From assembly GCA_964016885.1 (NCBI GenBank), contig OZ024745.1, forward strand, positions 67,270,001 through 67,334,000: DNA of 64,000 nucleotides. The letters run 5' to 3'. The stretch comes from Eledone cirrhosa (Eukaryota). Within the stretch, counting starts at the first letter, position 1. Every line of letters starts with the position of its first letter. The notes beneath the pieces are model-generated. The model was not told where the DNA came from and made no database searches. It saw nothing but the letters and a program-made list of their open reading frames with translations. The position numbers and the translations under genes are program-made. Shown here one piece after another: positions 23,601 through 58,909 of the stretch.

Positions 23601-23654
<54 letters not shown>

Positions 23655-23899
23655 GTAAGTATGCATGTATACGTACATACATATATGTATACAGACGTAC
23701 AGTAGCATGCACATATATATATATATATACATATATACATACATATGCATACAGGTACACATACATATATGCACGTATCAGTTTAGCGGCGCTTATTATA
23801 ACGTCGCTTTGTTCGTTTGTAAACAAACTGAACAGCCTGAATTTATGCCATACGGTGTTAAGGCAACCACGTCACCTTTTTGTTCAACACTGATACAGG

Positions 23900-23944
23900 A
23901 ACGATGTACTAGTTTCAAGCTTGTTAGCTATCATCAGCACCGTT
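23900..23944 (-). ncRNA. Type I hammerhead ribozyme, array copy 1 (identical copies 24364-24408, 24828-24872, 25300-25344)
   Basis: Reverse complement reads aacggtg-CTGATGA-t-agct-aaca-agct-t-GAAA-cta-GTA-catcgtt. Confidence 0.88.
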
Positions 23945-25513
23945 TACCCATCTGCCAGATAGTTGAACGTTCGAAAGTATATACTTTCCTTATGAAAATT
24001 AACGGCTGAGCAGCCTAATTTGCATATTGAGTGAGTTAAATCGGTCAGGCATACCGAAAACGATAAATTGAAACAAAATGAAAACGAAATTTCATTTATC
24101 ACTCTTAGTATGGCACTTACTTAAATGTAAGTATGCATGTATACGTACATACATATATGTATACAGACGTACAGTAGCATGCACATATATATATATATAT
24201 ACATACATATGCATACAGGTACACATACATATATGCACGTATCAGTTTAGCGGCGCTTATTATAACGTCGCTTTGTTCGTTTGTAAACAAACTGAACAGC
24301 CTGAATTTATGCCATACGGTGTTAAGGCAACCACGTCACCTTTTTGTTCAACACTGACACAGGAACGATGTACTAGTTTCAAGCTTGTTAGCTATCATCA
24401 GCACCGTTTACCCATCTGCCAGATAGTTGAACGTTCGAAAGTATATACTTTCCTTATGAAAATTAACGGCTGAGCAGCCTAATTTGCATATTGAGTGAGT
24501 TAAATCGGTCAGGCATACCGAAAACGATAAATTGAAACAAAATGAAAACGAAATTTCATTTATCACTCTTAGTATGGCACTTACTTAAATGTAAGTATGC
24601 ATGTATACGTACATACATATATGTATACAGACGTACAGTAGCATGCACATATATATATATATATACATACATATGCATACAGGTACACATACATATATGC
24701 ACGTATCAGTTTAGCGGCGCTTATTATAACGTCGCTTTGTTCGTTTGTAAACAAACTGAACAGCCTGAATTTATGCCATACGGTGTTAAGGCAACCACGT
24801 CACCTTTTTGTTCAACACTGACACAGGAACGATGTACTAGTTTCAAGCTTGTTAGCTATCATCAGCACCGTTTACCCATCTGCCAGATAGTTGAACGTTC
24901 GAAAGTATATACTTTCCTTATGAAAATTAACGGCTGAGCAGCCTAATTTGCATATTGAGTGAGTTAAATCGGTCAGGCATACCGAAAACGATAAATTGAA
25001 ACAAAATGAAAACGAAATTTCATTTATCACTCTTAGTATGGCACTTACTTAAATGTAAGTATGCATGTATACGTACATACATATATGTATACAGACGTAC
25101 AGTAGCATGCACATATATATATATATATACATATATACATACATATGCATACAGGTACACATACATATATGCACGTATCAGTTTAGCGGCGCTTATTATA
25201 ACGTCGCTTTGTTCGTTTGTAAACAAACTGAACAGCCTGAATTTATGCCATACGGTGTTAAGGCAACCACGTCACCTTTTTGTTCAACACTGACACAGGA
25301 ACGATGTACTAGTTTCAAGCTTGTTAGCTATCATCAGCACCGTTTACCCATCTGCCAGATAGTTGAAATTTCGTTTTCATTTTGTTTCAATTTATCGTTT
25401 TCGGTATGCCTGACCGATTTAACTCACTCAATATGCAAATTAGGCTGCTCAGCCGTTAATTTTCATAAGGAAAGTATATACTTTCGAACGTTCAACTATC
25501 TGGCAGATGGGTA

Positions 25514-25558
25514 AACGGTGCTGATGTTAGCTAACAAGCTTGAAACTAGTACATCGTT
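25514..25558 (+). ncRNA. Array hammerhead copy with core mutation A9 to U (CTGATGT), likely impaired
   Basis: Single substitution at 25527 relative to the other five copies. Confidence 0.75.
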
Positions 25559-25985
25559 CCTGTGTCAGTGTTGAACAAAAAGGTGACGTGGTTGCCTTAA
25601 CACCGTATGGCATAAATTCAGGCTGTTCAGTTTGTTTACAAACGAACAAAGCGACGTTATAATAAGCGCCGCTAAACTGATACGTGCATATATGTATGTG
25701 TACCTGTATGCATATGTATGTATATATGTATATATATATATATATGTGCATGCTACTGTACGTCTGTATACATATATGTATGTACGTATACATGCATACT
25801 TACATTTAAGTAAGTGCCATACTAAGAGTGATAAATGAAATTTCGTTTTCATTTTGTTTCAATTTATCGTTTTCGGTATGCCTGACCGATTTAACTCACT
25901 CAATATGCAAATTAGGCTGCTCAGCCGTTAATTTTCATAAGGAAAGTATATACTTTCGAACGTTCAACTATCTGGCAGATGGGTA

Positions 25986-26030
25986 AACGGTGCTGATGAT
26001 AGCTAACAAGCTTGAAACTAGTACATCGTT
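25986..26030 (+). ncRNA. Type I hammerhead ribozyme, intact; predicted cleavage after 26023 (GUA)
   Basis: 7-bp stem I (one G-U), canonical core, 4-bp stem II, palindromic stem III ACUAGU. Confidence 0.88.
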
Positions 26031-26333
26031 CCTGTGTCAGTGTTGAACAAAAAGGTGACGTGGTTGCCTTAACACCGTATGGCATAAATTCAGGCTGTTC
26101 AGTTTGTTTACAAACGAACAAAGCGACGTTATAATAAGCGCCGCTAAACTGATACGTGCATATATGTATGTGTACCTGTATGCATATGTATGTATATATG
26201 TACATATATATATATATGTGCATGCTACTGTACGTCTGTATACATATATGTATGTACGTATACATGCATACTTACATTTAAGTAAGTGCCATACTAAGAG
26301 TGATAAATGAAATTTCGTTTTCATTTTGTTTCA

Positions 26334-26397
<64 letters not shown>

Positions 26398-31905: not shown

Positions 31906-32385
31906 TGAAGAAGTATACATATCACTACATGCGCATAGTTACAAGTATAGATATAGACATACATACATGGTGTCCAACTGAGTTTGGTTCAATGAAATAT
32001 ATATATATATATACAGATCAGGGCAAACAACACGGACGCTCTATCTCAAAATTATTTTTGAAAAGCATTTAGAAATGCGCAACCGGTAAAAACTTAAAAC
32101 TACAACAGAATACTAACCAATACAATTACTAATACTCATTTATTCCTAATTAAACTATTTTTCAACTGTGAACAATCTGTCAGCATTTTCTATTCCGTTT
32201 ACCAATATATATATATATATATATATATATAATGAACAATGTTTTTCTGTCATAATTTATGAATACCACTCTTTCCATCTTTCTCGGCCTTCCGATGTGT
32301 GTGTGGATGTATGTATGTACATACATACGTGCATACTACATACGTACATACATTCACACATACATACATATATACATACATACAA

Positions 32386-35300
32386 TCTTCCAGAGAGAAA
32401 TTAACTCATGTATAAATATCTCTCTGGCTGAACGTGTTAAAATGACAATGGTGAATAAAAAACCAAATAATGAAATACTACGTGTTATTGACGAAATAGG
32501 GGATGAATATTTACGACGGGTAAAAACCCAAACATTTTGGCAAATCAACGCCTGTTTAAATGCCTTAGCAATGACAGTGAAGCATTATCTTGGTGATAGC
32601 AGAGATATTAACAAGAACAAAACAGCACCAAAAATACCATCATATATAACTAAAATAGAAAAAAAGAGTGCTGACCTACGAAAAAACATAGGACATGTGA
32701 TAATGCTCCTTACATGCAAACAAACACAAAAAAACCTCACTCCTCACCAACAAAGAGTGAAAAATAAAATAGAGACGATGTTTGGTAACCGTAGAACCAG
32801 AACTCTCCAATATAAGCTGATCACCCTCAAACAAGAATTGAGAGCTGTTAGCGAAAAACGCCGATACCTGAAGAAGGTAGATGAAAGAAAAATGCTTAAT
32901 AAAAGATTCAGACGAAACCAAACATCAGTCTATAGAGATATGAAGGGCAAAATAATAAGTGTCACTGAGGCCCCATCCCAGAAAGACAGATACTTTTTGG
33001 AGAAAAATATGGGGTGAAAAGAAGAATTTCAACGAAGATGCAGTGTGGCTAAGAGAAATCCGAAAGAACTATTGCTCCTACACTACAACAAAAACATACG
33101 AAATAAGTGAGGGTACCCTTGAGACTGTGATAAGAAAATTCCAAGATAAGAAAACACCAGGAAGAGACATGATTGTCGGCTACTGGTACAAAAAGCTAAT
33201 ATTCTATCGGAGGTATCTTACTGACCTCTACCAACAAGTTCTTAAGGGAGATACACTTATACCAGAATGGTTGACATTAGCACAAACGTTACTGGTCCCC
33301 AAGAACAAAGACACCCACTTGGCAAAAAACTACCGACCCATTGCATGCCAGAACCTGATGTATAAGATGTATACTGCCTGCCTCAACCTATTCCTCCAAG
33401 GTCACTGTGAAAATAATAACATCATCACAGATGAACAAGCAGCTGGAAAGAAAAGGTTTTGGGGATGTGCTGAACAACTCCTAATCAACAAAACTGCGAT
33501 GTCGGAGGTGCGACAACTTAGGAGGAATATGACTACAGTCTGGCTGGACTACAAGAAAGCTTTCGATTCTATTCGCCACTCTTGGATGATAGAGGCCCTC
33601 CAACTTGCTAAAGTCCCAGACATTATTGTCAGAGCCATAGATAGGCTGTCTTCTTCTTGGGCTACTACCCTAAGGTTAAAGACAGAGAGGGAGGACTCTA
33701 TTTTCACTGATAAAATAAAATATCGCAGGGGTATATTTCATGGGGGACAGTCTCTCTGTGATATTGTTCATCTTGTCATTAAACCCCTTGTCCTTTCTGC
33801 TCAAGAAATGTGAGGGATACATCATTGGCTCACAGGAGGACAGAAATACGAACCTAACCCATAACTTCTTTGTGGACGATCTGAAACTCTATGCCAAGAA
33901 CATGGATGCGATGAAGAAAAATCTTGACCTGGTTACAACGTTCTCAAAGGATATAGGAATGGAGTTTGGCCAAGATAAATGCTCATACATGACTGTAAAG
34001 CGGGGAAAAACAACAACCCAATCTAGCAACATTGTCATCAATGGTCTAACTGTTTCACCGATATCTGATGAGGACTGCTATAGATACCTGGGGATAGATG
34101 AGAACATATCCTATAATGGTATCTGTAATAAAGTACTCGTAACCAGGGAATACTACACCCGATTAAGAAAGATCTGGTCATCGGAACTCTCTGCGCAAAA
34201 CAAAACAGTGGCTCACAATGTGTTTGCTGTGCCTGTCCTAACACCAACGTTTGGAATACTCAATTGGACGATAGACGAAATCCGAGCAGTTGATGTTGGA
34301 ACTCGAAAAATACTGAACAACACCGGAAACTTCCACATCAACAGTGACATAGACCGCCTTTACTTGAAACGTAAGCAGGGAAACAGAGGCCTAACATCAG
34401 TCCAGACAACATTTGAATGTCGCATCATATCTCTCCGACAACATCTACGAACCTCGAAGCGTAGGAGCCCGCTTCTCGAGCAAGTCTATCTGCATGAAAC
34501 AGATAAGATCATGAGAGTTGGGAAGGAACTCCTTGAGAGATATTCCCTGTGTGATAATCAAAAACTCACACCCAGGGATGTCGCTCAGCAGTATCGCAGT
34601 GAATCCATGGATGAAAAACTGCATGCGTATCAGCAAAAAATCATGCATGGATATGTTGCCAGGAAGCTCCAGAGTGAGAGTAATATAGATAAGGAAAGTA
34701 GTCTATCTTGGACCAACAACCGCTATATTGGCTCCTACTTTGAAGGATACGCTTTTGCAATCCAAGAACAGGAGATTAGCACGAAATACCTGATTCACAA
34801 AAGAGATAGGGATGCAGGCAAAACACCTAGATGTGATAACAAGTGCAGACTCTGCAGAACTAACATCGAGGATATCACCCATGTCATCAGCAGCTGCCCA
34901 AAGATGTCATCGCGGTACTATCTATCTATCAGGCATGATGTAGTGGCCAAAACACTGTACAATGCAGTTCGTAAAAAAGATAGCCCCGATAATAAACACA
35001 TTAAAAGCTACAACAATGTGGAAGACATCCATGTACATAATATGAAAGAGTACTGGTGGAATGTTCCAGTAAAAACCCCAATAAAATGCAGGCATAACAG
35101 ACCAGATATTATGAAATGGGACAGGGAGAAGAAAACATGCCCAGTAGTGGAAATTAGCTGCCCAGCAGATGCCAATATAATATCAAAGATTAGTGAAAAG
35201 GAGAATATTTATGCAGAACTGATGAGAAATCTGCAGATACTCCACCCTGATTACACCTTCAGATTTATGCCTGTGATTATTGGGGCACTGGGATATGTTA

Positions 35301-35670
35301 GTAACTTCCTCATTACAAATCTTGAGAAGCTAGGCTTCACAGGAACAGAAAGAACAGAACTAGTTAGGAAATATACAAGTACAATCCATTAATGGAACAG
35401 TAAAAATATGTAAAACATTCCAAAAATGTTGCATCTAATAACTGCATATACACATGTACAGATACAAAGCATATACACATGCACACATACAACTCAAAAC
35501 ATACACATCCATACATACAATAACATCCATATCTACACATGCATGCATGCATACATACATATCTACCTAGTTGATGTTGTGTAAATTCCAATGAGAGAGT
35601 CTTGTGTCTATGTTAGAAACCGACTCTCTCTCTATTGGTAAAACTTTGTGAAATTATAAAACCAGAAGAA
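32386..35670 (+). mobile_element. R4/Dong-type non-LTR retrotransposon (RT plus restriction-like endonuclease), 5'-truncated, frameshifts near 32990, 33742 and 35372
   Basis: KTPGRD, KNYRPIAC, WLDYKKAFDS, GIF(H)/GDSLS, FFVDDLKLY, YRYLG, CRLC..H..SSC zinc knuckle, RHD, RPD..VEISCP..K..Y RLE motif; flanked by (CATA)n. Confidence 0.93.
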
Positions 35671-45705: not shown

Positions 45706-46321
45706 ATTCTAGGGCGGGTAAAATTCCCGAGATCCATGGGCGCGTTCTCTCCAGCGGTCTCTGTTCATCATTATCGCTGCCATGTCCTGCATCTCCAACA
45801 GACCAGTGTCTGTCCTTAGGGCATCAACATACGTTAACCTTGGTCTTCCTCTTCCAGTGTGTCCATGTAAGGGCTCCCACAGGAGCACTGAGTGCAATGT
45901 CAACTCTGGATGTCGATGAGCATGTTCAGCTAACCACAGTCTCCTCTGTGTCACTTTTGAGCTGACTTTTGGGAGGCTGCCATACAGCTCTGAGTTTTTC
46001 ATCCTCAATGTGTAGAGACATCATCAGCATTCTCGTGTAGCACCCATCCACCATCTGAGTGAGTTTCTTGGTCAGTGTCCAAGTCTCAGACCCGTACAGC
46101 AGCACAGACTCCACTACAGCAATGAAGATGCGGATTTTCAGGTCTTTACGAAGGTCCGATTTCCACACCGATCTCAAGCTGTAGCACGCCGCCCAAGCTT
46201 TGCTCTTCCTCTCAACCACATCATCTTCCGTATTCCCAATCTTTGCTCCCAAATACAGGAAGTCCTCAACCAATTCTAGCGGCTTCCCGCCTACATTAGT
46301 AATCCCCTCTGGCTTCAACAT
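45706..46321 (-). mobile_element. RTE-clade LINE 3' fragment ending in (TA)n
   Basis: LELVEDFLYLG, ESVLLYGSETWTLTK, DGCYTRML, LLWEP..GRGRPRLTYVD, NRDRWR. Confidence 0.9.
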
Positions 46322-46410
46322 TCTCTACCAGATATTTTGTTTTAGTCTCATTCATTCTCAACCACACACTCATCGACACAGTCTCAACCTCCGAGAATAA
46401 TAATTTTAGA

Positions 46411-46450
<40 letters not shown>

Positions 46451-46639
46451 TCTAAAATTATTATTCTCGACTCTAAAAATGAGATAATCCCTTCTTGTCT
46501 ACATATAAACATTTACTCTTTTTTTTACAAAATCATTGAACCTGATTAATTATACCTGTTACATTCCTACTTAGGTTTGTGTAACACATGGAATAGTGGT
46601 CTCATATATCTTTTCTACCCTGCCTCTTGGTTAAACTTT

Positions 46640-47792
46640 ATTATAAAATGTATTTTGTTACCCAGCTTAAACCTCCGTATTTGAACATGGTCGCTTGGAT
46701 GCCAATGTGCACCAAGGAAGAACAGAGATCAGTGATCCGATTTCTCTACTCTGAGGGTGTGTCAGGGGCTGAAATTCATCACAGGCTTTTATTACAATAC
46801 AGGAACAACTCTCTACCGCTTATAAGTATGTATGAGTGGATTGAAAATGGTCAGACAAGTGTGAAGCACGAAGAAGGAATAGGACGACCATTTACCTCCA
46901 CTACTGACGTAAAAATTCAACAAGCTTCAAAAATGGTTCTGGCAAACAGACGAGTGACCATTGAGGAGGTGGAATGTTCTCTGCAAATTGCTCATTATTC
47001 TGCTTACGATATCATCCATAAGCTTCGCTTACGTAAAGTATGTGTGCGATGGGTGCCAAGAGAGGTTACCGAAGTGCATAAGTGCAATTGTGTGGAGATC
47101 TGCCAACGCTCACTCAACCTCTACAAAGATGAGGGCGAATAGTCATAGAAGAAGAGTCCTGGATCCATCATTTTGAACCAGAATTCAAAAGGCTGAGATG
47201 AAGTGGAAACCGTCGGTTTCGCCAGTGAAAACGAAATTCAAGACCCAGCCTTTTGCAGAAGTTATGCTAACTGTTTTGGGGACGCAAAAGGGCTTATATT
47301 GGAGAATTAACTGGAAAAGGGATTTACAGTTATCAATGTAGGTTACAGTGAAACGCTGGCCAACAAACTGAAATCAGTAATTCGCATCAAACGCCGAGGT
47401 CTGTTATCGAAACAAGTGTTATTGCTGCACGAAAATCCACGCCCATATATGGCTACCCACACCGTTAAAACCATAGAAAAATTAGGTTTTGATTGCTGAA
47501 ACACTCTGCATGCAACCCATATCTGACCTCTTCCGACTATTACCTCTTTGAACCACTCAAACATCGTTTACGTGGTCGTTGATTTGCTGCGGACGAAGAA
47601 GTGCACAAAGCGATGGATAAATGGCTGTGTGACCAGCCAAAAACCTTATTCTCCGATAGAATAAGCAAGCTTGTGGACCGCTGGAAAACGTACATCGAAA
47701 AGCAAGAAAACTATGTCGAAAATGATGTAATTGTTCAACTCCTGCTTTAAATTACAGACAGAAGAGTGCGTATAATTTTTTACTTCAACTAA
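46640..47792 (+). mobile_element. Decayed mariner transposon (transposase pseudogene ~46706-47725)
   Basis: KEEQRSVIRFL..GAEIHHRL, GRP, KVCVRWVPRE, ESWIHHFEPE, LLHENPRP, RWKTYIEKQENYVE; several stops and frameshifts. Confidence 0.9.
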
Positions 47793-57974: not shown

Positions 57975-58419
57975 GTATATATATCAAAGGTATATATTGA
58001 GTTAGGAACTCAAAATAGTCTCTTACAATAAAATAGCTCTAAGAAAGAGATTTTTCCGAGCCGTATATTATAATTGAATATAAAAGAAAAACGAACACAG
58101 ATATATAGATATATAGATATATAGATATATGTGTTCAAATCGCAAGGGACCAGATTCGCTAAGGTGAAAAGAATACTAACTATAGACAATAGGGTTTGCC
58201 TGACTCAATTTAAGAATAAATCAAGAAAATAAATACAAAACGGAATTGTGCGGTTTGTACTTATTTTCTTGATTTATTCTTAAATTGAATCAGGCAAACC
58301 CTATTGTCTATAGTTAGTATTCTTTTCACCTTAGCGAATCTGGTCCCTTGCGATTTGAACACATATATGTATATATCTGTGTTCGTTTTTCTTTTATATT
58401 CAATTATAATATGTATATA

Positions 58420-58458
<39 letters not shown>

Positions 58459-58499
58459 AAAGAGATGTTCGTTTTTCTTTTATATTCAATTATAATATG

Positions 58500-58560
<61 letters not shown>

Positions 58561-58564
<4 letters not shown>

Positions 58565-58909
58565 AAAGAGATGAAATCGAAAATGCAACTGGAGTCTTAT
58601 TTAAAAAGAAAATATATATATTTATTTGGTTCCTTTACCGGTTTCGCAGTTCTTCTGCTTTTCAAAAGGTGAGTTGAGATGGAGGGACTGTGGTTTTTCT
58701 CAGATGTGAGAAAAACCACAGACCCTCCATCTCAACTCACCTTTTGAAAAGCAGAAGAACTGCGAAACCGGTAAAGGAACCAAATAAATATATATATTTT
58801 CTTTTTAAATAAGACTCCAGTTGCATTTTCGATTTCATCTCTTTTTCTTTATACTTTCACTCGTGTAGGACACCTCGGTTTAATTTTCATTTTGTAAAAA
58901 AAACCTCAC

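Follow-up and report, generated by a model that had tools for sequence, protein, structure and literature searches.

A 64,000-nt stretch of the Eledone cirrhosa genome (NCBI GenBank assembly GCA_964016885.1, contig OZ024745.1, positions 67,270,001 to 67,334,000; below, the window, in whose coordinates positions are given) contains an array of a short hammerhead-bearing unit. The array consists of two opposite arms, 1,718 bp on the minus and 976 bp on the plus strand, placed head-to-head between (TA)n runs. It represents a new family of the known animal retrozymes without long terminal repeats (non-LTR retrozymes), for which mobilisation by Penelope-like elements (PLEs) is well supported and a circular template is likely. 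Taken as a whole, the element is probably a retrozyme of the animal type, a Penelope-like element that is non-autonomous and moves by the circle mechanism proposed below. Its features are as follows, with unit numbering starting at the predicted ribozyme cut (position 1 is base 25552 or 26024).

23620..23649, no strand: left half of the (TA)n target, preceded by (CT)n
23650..25367, minus: left arm, 3.7 units (partial, 472, 464, 464, partial), from Tandem Repeats Finder (TRF) and motif scan
23650, minus: 3' end of the left arm, the short end, at unit position 257
23900..23944, minus: type I hammerhead, intact core (this and the other five motifs from the core-motif scan)
24364..24408, minus: type I hammerhead, intact core
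24828..24872, minus: type I hammerhead, intact core
25300..25344, minus: type I hammerhead, intact core
25364..25367, no strand: head-to-head junction of the arms, 4-nt microhomology
25364..26339, plus: right arm, 2.1 units, with its 3' end at 26339, the long end, at unit position 316
25514..25558, plus: hammerhead with core A9 changed to U (T at base 25527)
25552..26023, plus: full monomer, cut site to cut site, 472 nt, 36% GC
25678..25796, plus: TA/TG-rich tract with a long predicted hairpin, in which the 8-nt length difference arises
25798..25815, plus: hairpin with the short 3' end site (position 257) in its loop, this site being the putative first start of reverse transcription
25832, plus: position 281, T in 5/5 covering copies on both arms; the majority in other young loci is G
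25963..26047, plus: predicted extended helix I across the cut site
25986..26030, plus: type I hammerhead, predicted cut after 26023
26281..26339, plus: 59-nt PLE-type tail, positions 258-316, at one outer end only
26337..26393, no strand: right half of the (TA)n target, from TRF

TRF assigns a period of 464 and 3.7 copies to the minus arm (23650-25367) and a period of 472 and 2.1 copies to the plus arm (25364-26339), which bears out the original prediction, made from the letters of the window, of arms of about 3.7 and 2.1 units with (TA)n at both outer ends. The arms meet 5' to 5' in the ribozyme sense, with the microhomology at 25364-25367, and the outer 3' end of each passes into (TA)n. The same prediction held that the array has no real open reading frame (ORF), and this agrees with our results. 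Stop-to-stop frames reach 151 aa and are mostly microsatellite-coded residues, and tblastn with seven ORFs from GIY-YIG loci (six PLE-like, one spurious and repeat-coded) gave no match in the array. Neither the frame listing nor tblastn detected in it the reverse transcriptase (RT) plus GIY-YIG ORF of an autonomous PLE.

The unit is dispersed in many copies that have neither LTR nor ORF. In the 3.0-Gb genome, an exact 24-mer across the ribozyme cut is matched 16,959 times (reversed control, 0), an exact 31-mer characteristic of the youngest subfamily is matched 4,734 times, and a 351-nt query gives at least 42 matches of 82-100% identity on many contigs. Both discrete subfamilies and near-identical young copies are present. 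The earlier view of a retrozyme-like unit, recently inserted and dispersed in TA-flanked copies, is supported, and the match counts exclude an ordinary satellite confined to this locus. Across the family the unit measures ~440-540 nt and has an internal TA hairpin. The earlier remark that it is longer than usual holds against the usual 170-400 nt (PMC7229834, with 350-390 bp in mussels; here and below, papers identified by PMC number or DOI are cited for the available part of their text). It does not hold against the full ranges of 150 to over 1000 nt (same source) and 51-972 bp (Li, Clavereau and Pollet 2026, 10.64898/2026.07.22.740005), within which the unit falls. Of the public sequencing runs listed for sequence words of 25830-26180, none is an RNA run; six runs from four studies and four organisms contain 77-94% of the sampled words, and the best of them may be the window's own sample.

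Insertion ends were mapped in a position-picked set of 60 stretches, which cover 95 of the first 100 listed 24-mer matches, on contig C1 (five single matches were left out). Two fixed internal sites, 59 nt apart, take 66 of the 80 terminal 3' ends in this set: 31 ends lie at unit positions 252-262, 22 of them at exactly 257, and 35 lie at 309-316, with 11 elsewhere and three continuing into a further unit. Most 3' ends join (TA)n directly, and read-through beyond position 316 enters the next unit. In 85 stretches, joined opposite arms are head-to-head in 43 of 44 cases. The end-pair rule classified both ends in 30 of these 43 insertions, and in 28 of the 30 a long end is paired with a short one, the other two being short-short; in the position-picked set the pairing is found in 21 of 23 (p = 3e-5). 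The 135 5' ends are scattered, 47 of them in the TA tract, and show no pile-up at the ribozyme cut site. Only seven fall in positions 1-25, so the RT usually crosses an intact junction.

This end pattern matches that of PLE insertions, which are partial tandems with an inverted 5'-truncated copy and a tail on one end (10.1101/2021.04.23.441226). The PLE tail is the stretch between two internal starts of reverse transcription, both target strands being nicked and extended, and the PLE protein is predicted to be a dimer (PMC11167929); the available text of PMC11722881 adds nothing further on insertion ends. One start per arm suggests two active sites on one RNA. The family is almost certainly a non-autonomous element mobilised by PLEs, as had been suspected from the window, and the two fixed 3' ends, the long-short pairing of arms, the partial tandems with an inverted 5'-truncated arm and the targeting of (TA)n microsatellites are the grounds for this conclusion. 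The palindromic shape described earlier is real, but it is that of an ordinary inverted PLE insertion with a tail at one end.

The template left its record in 25 young loci: 20 from the first 100 31-mer matches, picked mainly for several units (five single matches were left out), four others, and the window locus. Fifteen substitutions are fixed in every covering copy and private to one locus each; they are spread over 11 loci, and four of them, including T281 of the window, span both arms. Only three variants are confined to some of the units of a locus; a further 80 are singletons, of which 3/77 distinct ones recur in a second locus. Unit length is often locus-specific across both arms (for instance, 476 in six of six full units of L169) and varies almost solely within the TA tract. 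The arrays have thus been repeatedly rebuilt from a single unit. Up to 15 junctions are found in one arm and 18 in one insertion. All 121 junctions read fit the cut-site motif; they were located by this motif, so imprecise ones could escape, and no oversize gap between units was seen. These observations point to one monomer copied repeatedly, and the simplest reading, given the precise junctions and their number per arm, is rolling around a ligated circle. A circular monomer template is, as far as the DNA can tell, likely. The circular RNA replicon of the original prediction is thereby indirectly supported as a circular template, while a self-replicating replicon, as opposed to a retrotransposition intermediate, finds no support.

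RNA modification read by the RT was considered as an explanation of the mixture of G and T seen at position 281 within the arrays of 21 of 55 multi-copy insertions, and was ruled out, the mixing being present in one of 31 position-picked loci; it had appeared because the 351-nt query carried the rare T. In L026, an older array with at least seven junctions, two variants of hammerhead helix I alternate in the first six units, a possible dimer-level repeat.

The hammerheads of the array are spaced by 464, 464 and 472 on the minus arm, which has four consecutive intact motifs, and by 472 on the plus arm. Five of the six are identical, and the sixth (25514) differs at core A9, a change to U that, from general knowledge of the hammerhead core, probably impairs it. 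Six near-identical motifs at exact unit spacing had been noticed correctly and the A9 mutation at 25527 overlooked; the cut predicted after 26023 is right by core numbering. As a recurrent signal, A9-to-U was rejected (4/45, then 1/25 in position-picked loci; not significant over ~1,000 site-allele tests). The motif has a helix I of 7 bp, a helix II of 4 bp closed by U-U and a palindromic helix III of 2 bp with a 2-nt loop, and the usual G10.1-C11.1 pair is missing. It is thus a type I motif with a short helix III, and not, as first proposed, the minimal form of PMC4209133. The Rfam hammerhead search that had been suggested gave 0 matches at gathering thresholds across the whole window, and the ribozyme assignment therefore rests on the core motif, the helices and conservation. 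An Rfam match is not among the criteria that define a retrozyme in 10.64898/2026.07.22.740005 and PMC7229834, which rely on motif descriptors. For the monomer hammerhead, the active-like fold has an energy of -2.0 versus a minimum of -9.5 kcal/mol, and the intermolecular duplex has -6.8 kcal/mol.

Six core positions lie outside the search pattern, and over 64 insertions 383 of their 384 calls show no change, while the free N7 is U in 26 and C in 38; other variation in the ribozyme lies in loop II and at one helix I site, where G-U becomes A-U. The circular fold of the 472-nt monomer has z = -7.5 in the sense and -4.5 in the antisense orientation (60 shuffles). Of 18 variable pairs in the sense fold, four are compensatory, eight kept and six broken, as against four, four and 16 in the antisense fold and 0-1 compensatory pairs in slid controls; these counts ignore shared descent and come from loci that were chosen because the 3' half of their ribozyme is intact. 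Next to the hairpin at 25798..25815 is a helix in which positions 57 and 268 have changed in a compensatory way. The subfamilies share a conserved ribozyme core and a conserved sense-strand fold, and the G-U pattern favours the ribozyme strand. Judging from these sequence comparisons, the ribozyme is very probably under selection.

A genome search for GIY-YIG gave 10,597 first-look candidates, of which 150 were scored and 50 loci examined. The 50 include several families that combine RT and GIY-YIG and have the CxxxxCxxC linker, which marks Neptune and Nematis (10.1101/2021.04.23.441226); our label Neptune-type refers to this linker motif and not to a tree. One young and intact Neptune-type family (L124/L160; L141-L160) has 69 scored copies of 98-100% identity, and its ribozyme has 6,005 exact genome matches. 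Its insertions in (TA)n are tandem and head-to-head and end at ~+127 and +188, and the hammerhead of the family has the U-U closure and the palindromic helix III with a UA loop that are found in the retrozyme. With the TA overlap included, its tail (50-66) matches that of the retrozyme (56-61) loosely; tails of other PLE families are ~28-40 nt and those of the L121 family 61-72, read by eye from very few ends each. No PLE terminus corresponding to the retrozyme unit was found in the 50 examined loci of the 10,597 candidates. The L124/L160 family is a candidate without sequence homology, and we name it tentatively as the possible helper.

Several observations concern the PLEs themselves. The internal TA tract of one retrozyme copy, in L156, contains a head-to-head insertion of the young PLE. 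In the young family (L141-L160 and L124; for example, the minus strand of L160), a 449-aa ORF1 overlaps the 768-aa RT/GIY-YIG frame in -1 phase, with a U UUU UUA heptamer at the join. The T run of the heptamer is kept in 26 of 26 copies and the slippery phase in 10 of the 11 copies with an ORF1 start; no strong fold was found downstream of it. A programmed frameshift is possible from this arrangement, in an element of a group, the endonuclease-bearing PLEs, that has been described as single-ORF (10.1101/2021.04.23.441226). In the PLE termini of L121, L127, L137 and L140, U3 and A8 replace C3 and G8 of the hammerhead core; a covariant of this kind is described in PMC4209133.

We suggest the following mechanism. 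The tandem array would be transcribed, and adjacent hammerheads would pair via the palindromic helix III and excise monomers. The extended helix I predicted at 25963..26047 would keep both ends of a cut monomer together for ligation into a ~470-nt circle. A Neptune-type RT/GIY-YIG protein, probably a dimer, would bind the structured 247-316 region, nick both (TA)n strands and prime reverse transcription from each target end, one start being at position 257 and the other at 316. Each RT would circle the same RNA, from less than one lap to over a dozen, and the two cDNAs would be joined head-to-head by microhomology, or one arm would be very short or lost. Stated in full, the proposal is that a PLE dimer starts two reverse transcriptions at fixed sites 59 nt apart on one ribozyme-made circle and rolls around it from both halves of a broken (TA)n target, that the circle is recognised by its shape and not its sequence, and that the young PLE family, whose tail matches, acts as the helper; the genome would then hold a direct record of the process. 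This combination is somewhat more doubtful than the choice of helper and rather less likely than not. If true, it would explain together why PLEs have a tail, how their inverted tandems arise and what their hammerheads do, and it would provide a natural pair of enzyme and circle.

A number of observations weigh against parts of this interpretation. Subset variants occur in three young arrays (six of nine units in L166, three of 18 in L165, two of three in L168), L165 shows a pattern of period 3, and two 464-nt units lie side by side in the window; such patterns need slippage, later duplication or multimeric templates, and the 8-nt loss that recurs in scattered L165 units may be due to slippage. 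In a nearest-neighbour test of units from old and young copies, 47 were closest to a unit of the same insertion and 45 to one of another, with 41 ties, and the fixation of the private variants may date from one or several earlier rounds. In vitro, ribozyme mutants left PLE insertion unaffected and uncut RNA was the main substrate (PMC11167929), and only one of nine retrozyme dimers cleaved (10.64898/2026.07.22.740005). The minimum-energy fold of the Eledone monomer moves helix I out of the active register, and the part of the ribozyme that was not selected for is variable at 3/21 positions, not much more rarely than the 23% outside it. The comparison of five PLE terminal regions with the unit gave no nucleotide alignment above shuffles. 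Finally, the evidence is from DNA, and cleavage, expression and RNA circles are predictions.

Some of these points would be explained if the same PLE machinery copied an uncut linear multimer from a parent array, the arrays being regenerated and homogenised at the DNA level and the ribozyme being incidental or acting elsewhere. The block and period-3 patterns of L165 and L166 fit such a template, as do the dominance of uncut RNA as the substrate of purified PLE protein (PMC11167929) and the satellite-like local expansion proposed by others (10.64898/2026.07.22.740005). We nevertheless find it unlikely: private variants are fixed in all units, across inverted arms in four loci, hardly any singletons are shared between loci, and the arms of the window and of L165 are out of register for unit length. 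Moreover, truncation only shortens arrays, yet one arm has 15 junctions. The fixed private variants are equally well accounted for by one cut linear monomer or short multimer on which the RT jumps repeatedly from the 5' end to the 3' end, and the few arms that begin within 25 nt of the cut (7/135) are in line with it. End-to-end template jumping is known for R2-type RTs; such jumps usually add or lose bases, whereas every junction read in the young loci fits the cut-site motif and lengths differ almost only in the TA tract, which makes this template improbable.

Two further alternatives question the nature of the element. The unit could be the pseudo-LTR of an autonomous PLE, and the arrays its truncated copies and local expansions instead of an independent parasite. 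In Xenopus, 24 of 57 retrozyme families match known elements, mostly PLE termini (10.64898/2026.07.22.740005), and the GIY-YIG loci examined here are a small part of the candidates. Against this, 86 stretches (L005-L090) and the window show no PLE ORF joined to the unit, the two PLE-ORF matches (L042 and L087) fall outside the unit matches, the unit matches near GIY-YIG loci in L115 and L132 stand apart from the PLE frames, and read-through past 316 leads into the next unit; we consider this origin very improbable. A viroid-like RNA that replicates from RNA to RNA and is occasionally captured as DNA would agree with the strong conserved fold, and RNA-RNA replication has been raised as a possibility for mussel retrozymes (PMC7229834). 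It is the least credible alternative, given that the core-motif scan of the window found the hammerhead core in one polarity only, that discrete subfamilies and near-identical young copies fit genomic source copies, and that retrotransposition explains every feature. Copying of a ribozyme-derived circle by PLE machinery is our preferred explanation.

Other repeats were seen in and around the window. Four more motifs resembling the hammerhead core lie near (TA)n (+12077, +40625, -59651 and -11645). Their neighbourhoods recur in unrelated loci, so the window has several more repeat families, some of them probably ribozyme-bearing. Ends of the L121 PLE family form a short head-to-head pair at ~58400-58900, and a second tandem hammerhead family, with a period of 310 bp, adjoins a retrozyme insertion at L039:5340-6600. 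The broken frames at 32256-35392, 45709-46324 and 46597-47142 resemble what we take to be a non-LTR retrotransposon with a C-terminal nuclease, an RTE-like fragment and a mariner-like transposase, respectively.

Animal non-LTR retrozymes are an established class, whose circular RNAs have been demonstrated in coral, mussel and axolotl and for which mobilisation by PLEs has been proposed (PMC7229834, Cervera and de la Pena 2020). The Eledone family resembles them in its non-coding tandems with one type I hammerhead per unit, GC below 45%, high pairing, thousands of copies and coexisting PLEs, and in having a U-U at the foot of helix II that is reminiscent of an axolotl motif (PMC7229834). It differs from them in its ~440-540-nt unit with an internal TA hairpin and in that no homology to PLE termini was found in the 50 GIY-YIG loci and five terminal regions compared. 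Expression and circles have been shown in coral, mussel and axolotl, whereas in the Eledone family they are predicted. The literature searched, with supplements and most subscription papers outside its scope, holds no description of this family and no mapping of a PLE tail on a retrozyme; in the main text of the octopus repeat paper PMC13282606 a term search did not find the words hammerhead, ribozyme or retrozyme.

Like the Neptune-clade endonuclease PLEs (Craig et al. 2021; Frangieh et al. 2024, PMC11167929), the Eledone element shows partial tandems, an inverted 5'-truncated arm, a tail at one end and a (TA)n target, and its hammerhead lies upstream of two internal start sites; unlike them, it has no ORF, the whole element being one short repeat, and its tail is 59 nt as compared with 30-40 nt in PLEs (10.1101/2021.04.23.441226). 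The dimer-active PLE hammerheads (Cervera and de la Pena 2014, PMC4209133) share with it a short palindromic helix III that is unstable alone. In Eledone, however, a helix III exists (2 bp, 2-nt loop), helix II has 4 bp as opposed to 7-8, and G10.1-C11.1 is missing. A model of a circle with more-than-unit reverse transcription was proposed for PLE tandems in 2014 (PMC4209133), a 2026 preprint interprets retrozymes as non-autonomous PLE derivatives from co-occurrence and homology (10.64898/2026.07.22.740005), and the way in which animal retrozymes move, and the reason why PLEs bear hammerheads and insert as tandem and inverted copies, are described as unresolved in the available text of this preprint and of 10.1101/2021.04.23.441226. 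Whereas papers on animal retrozymes argue for PLE mobilisation from co-occurrence and homology to pseudo-LTRs, the argument here comes from insertion ends and per-insertion variants. The family is young, abundant and readable, and from its thousands of insertions, with their mapped ends and private variants, the circle model can be tested in the genome alone, while intact PLEs in the same genome make an in vitro test possible. Because the class is already known, in molluscs from the mussel retrozymes (PMC7229834), the value of the Eledone family is mechanistic and not categorical.
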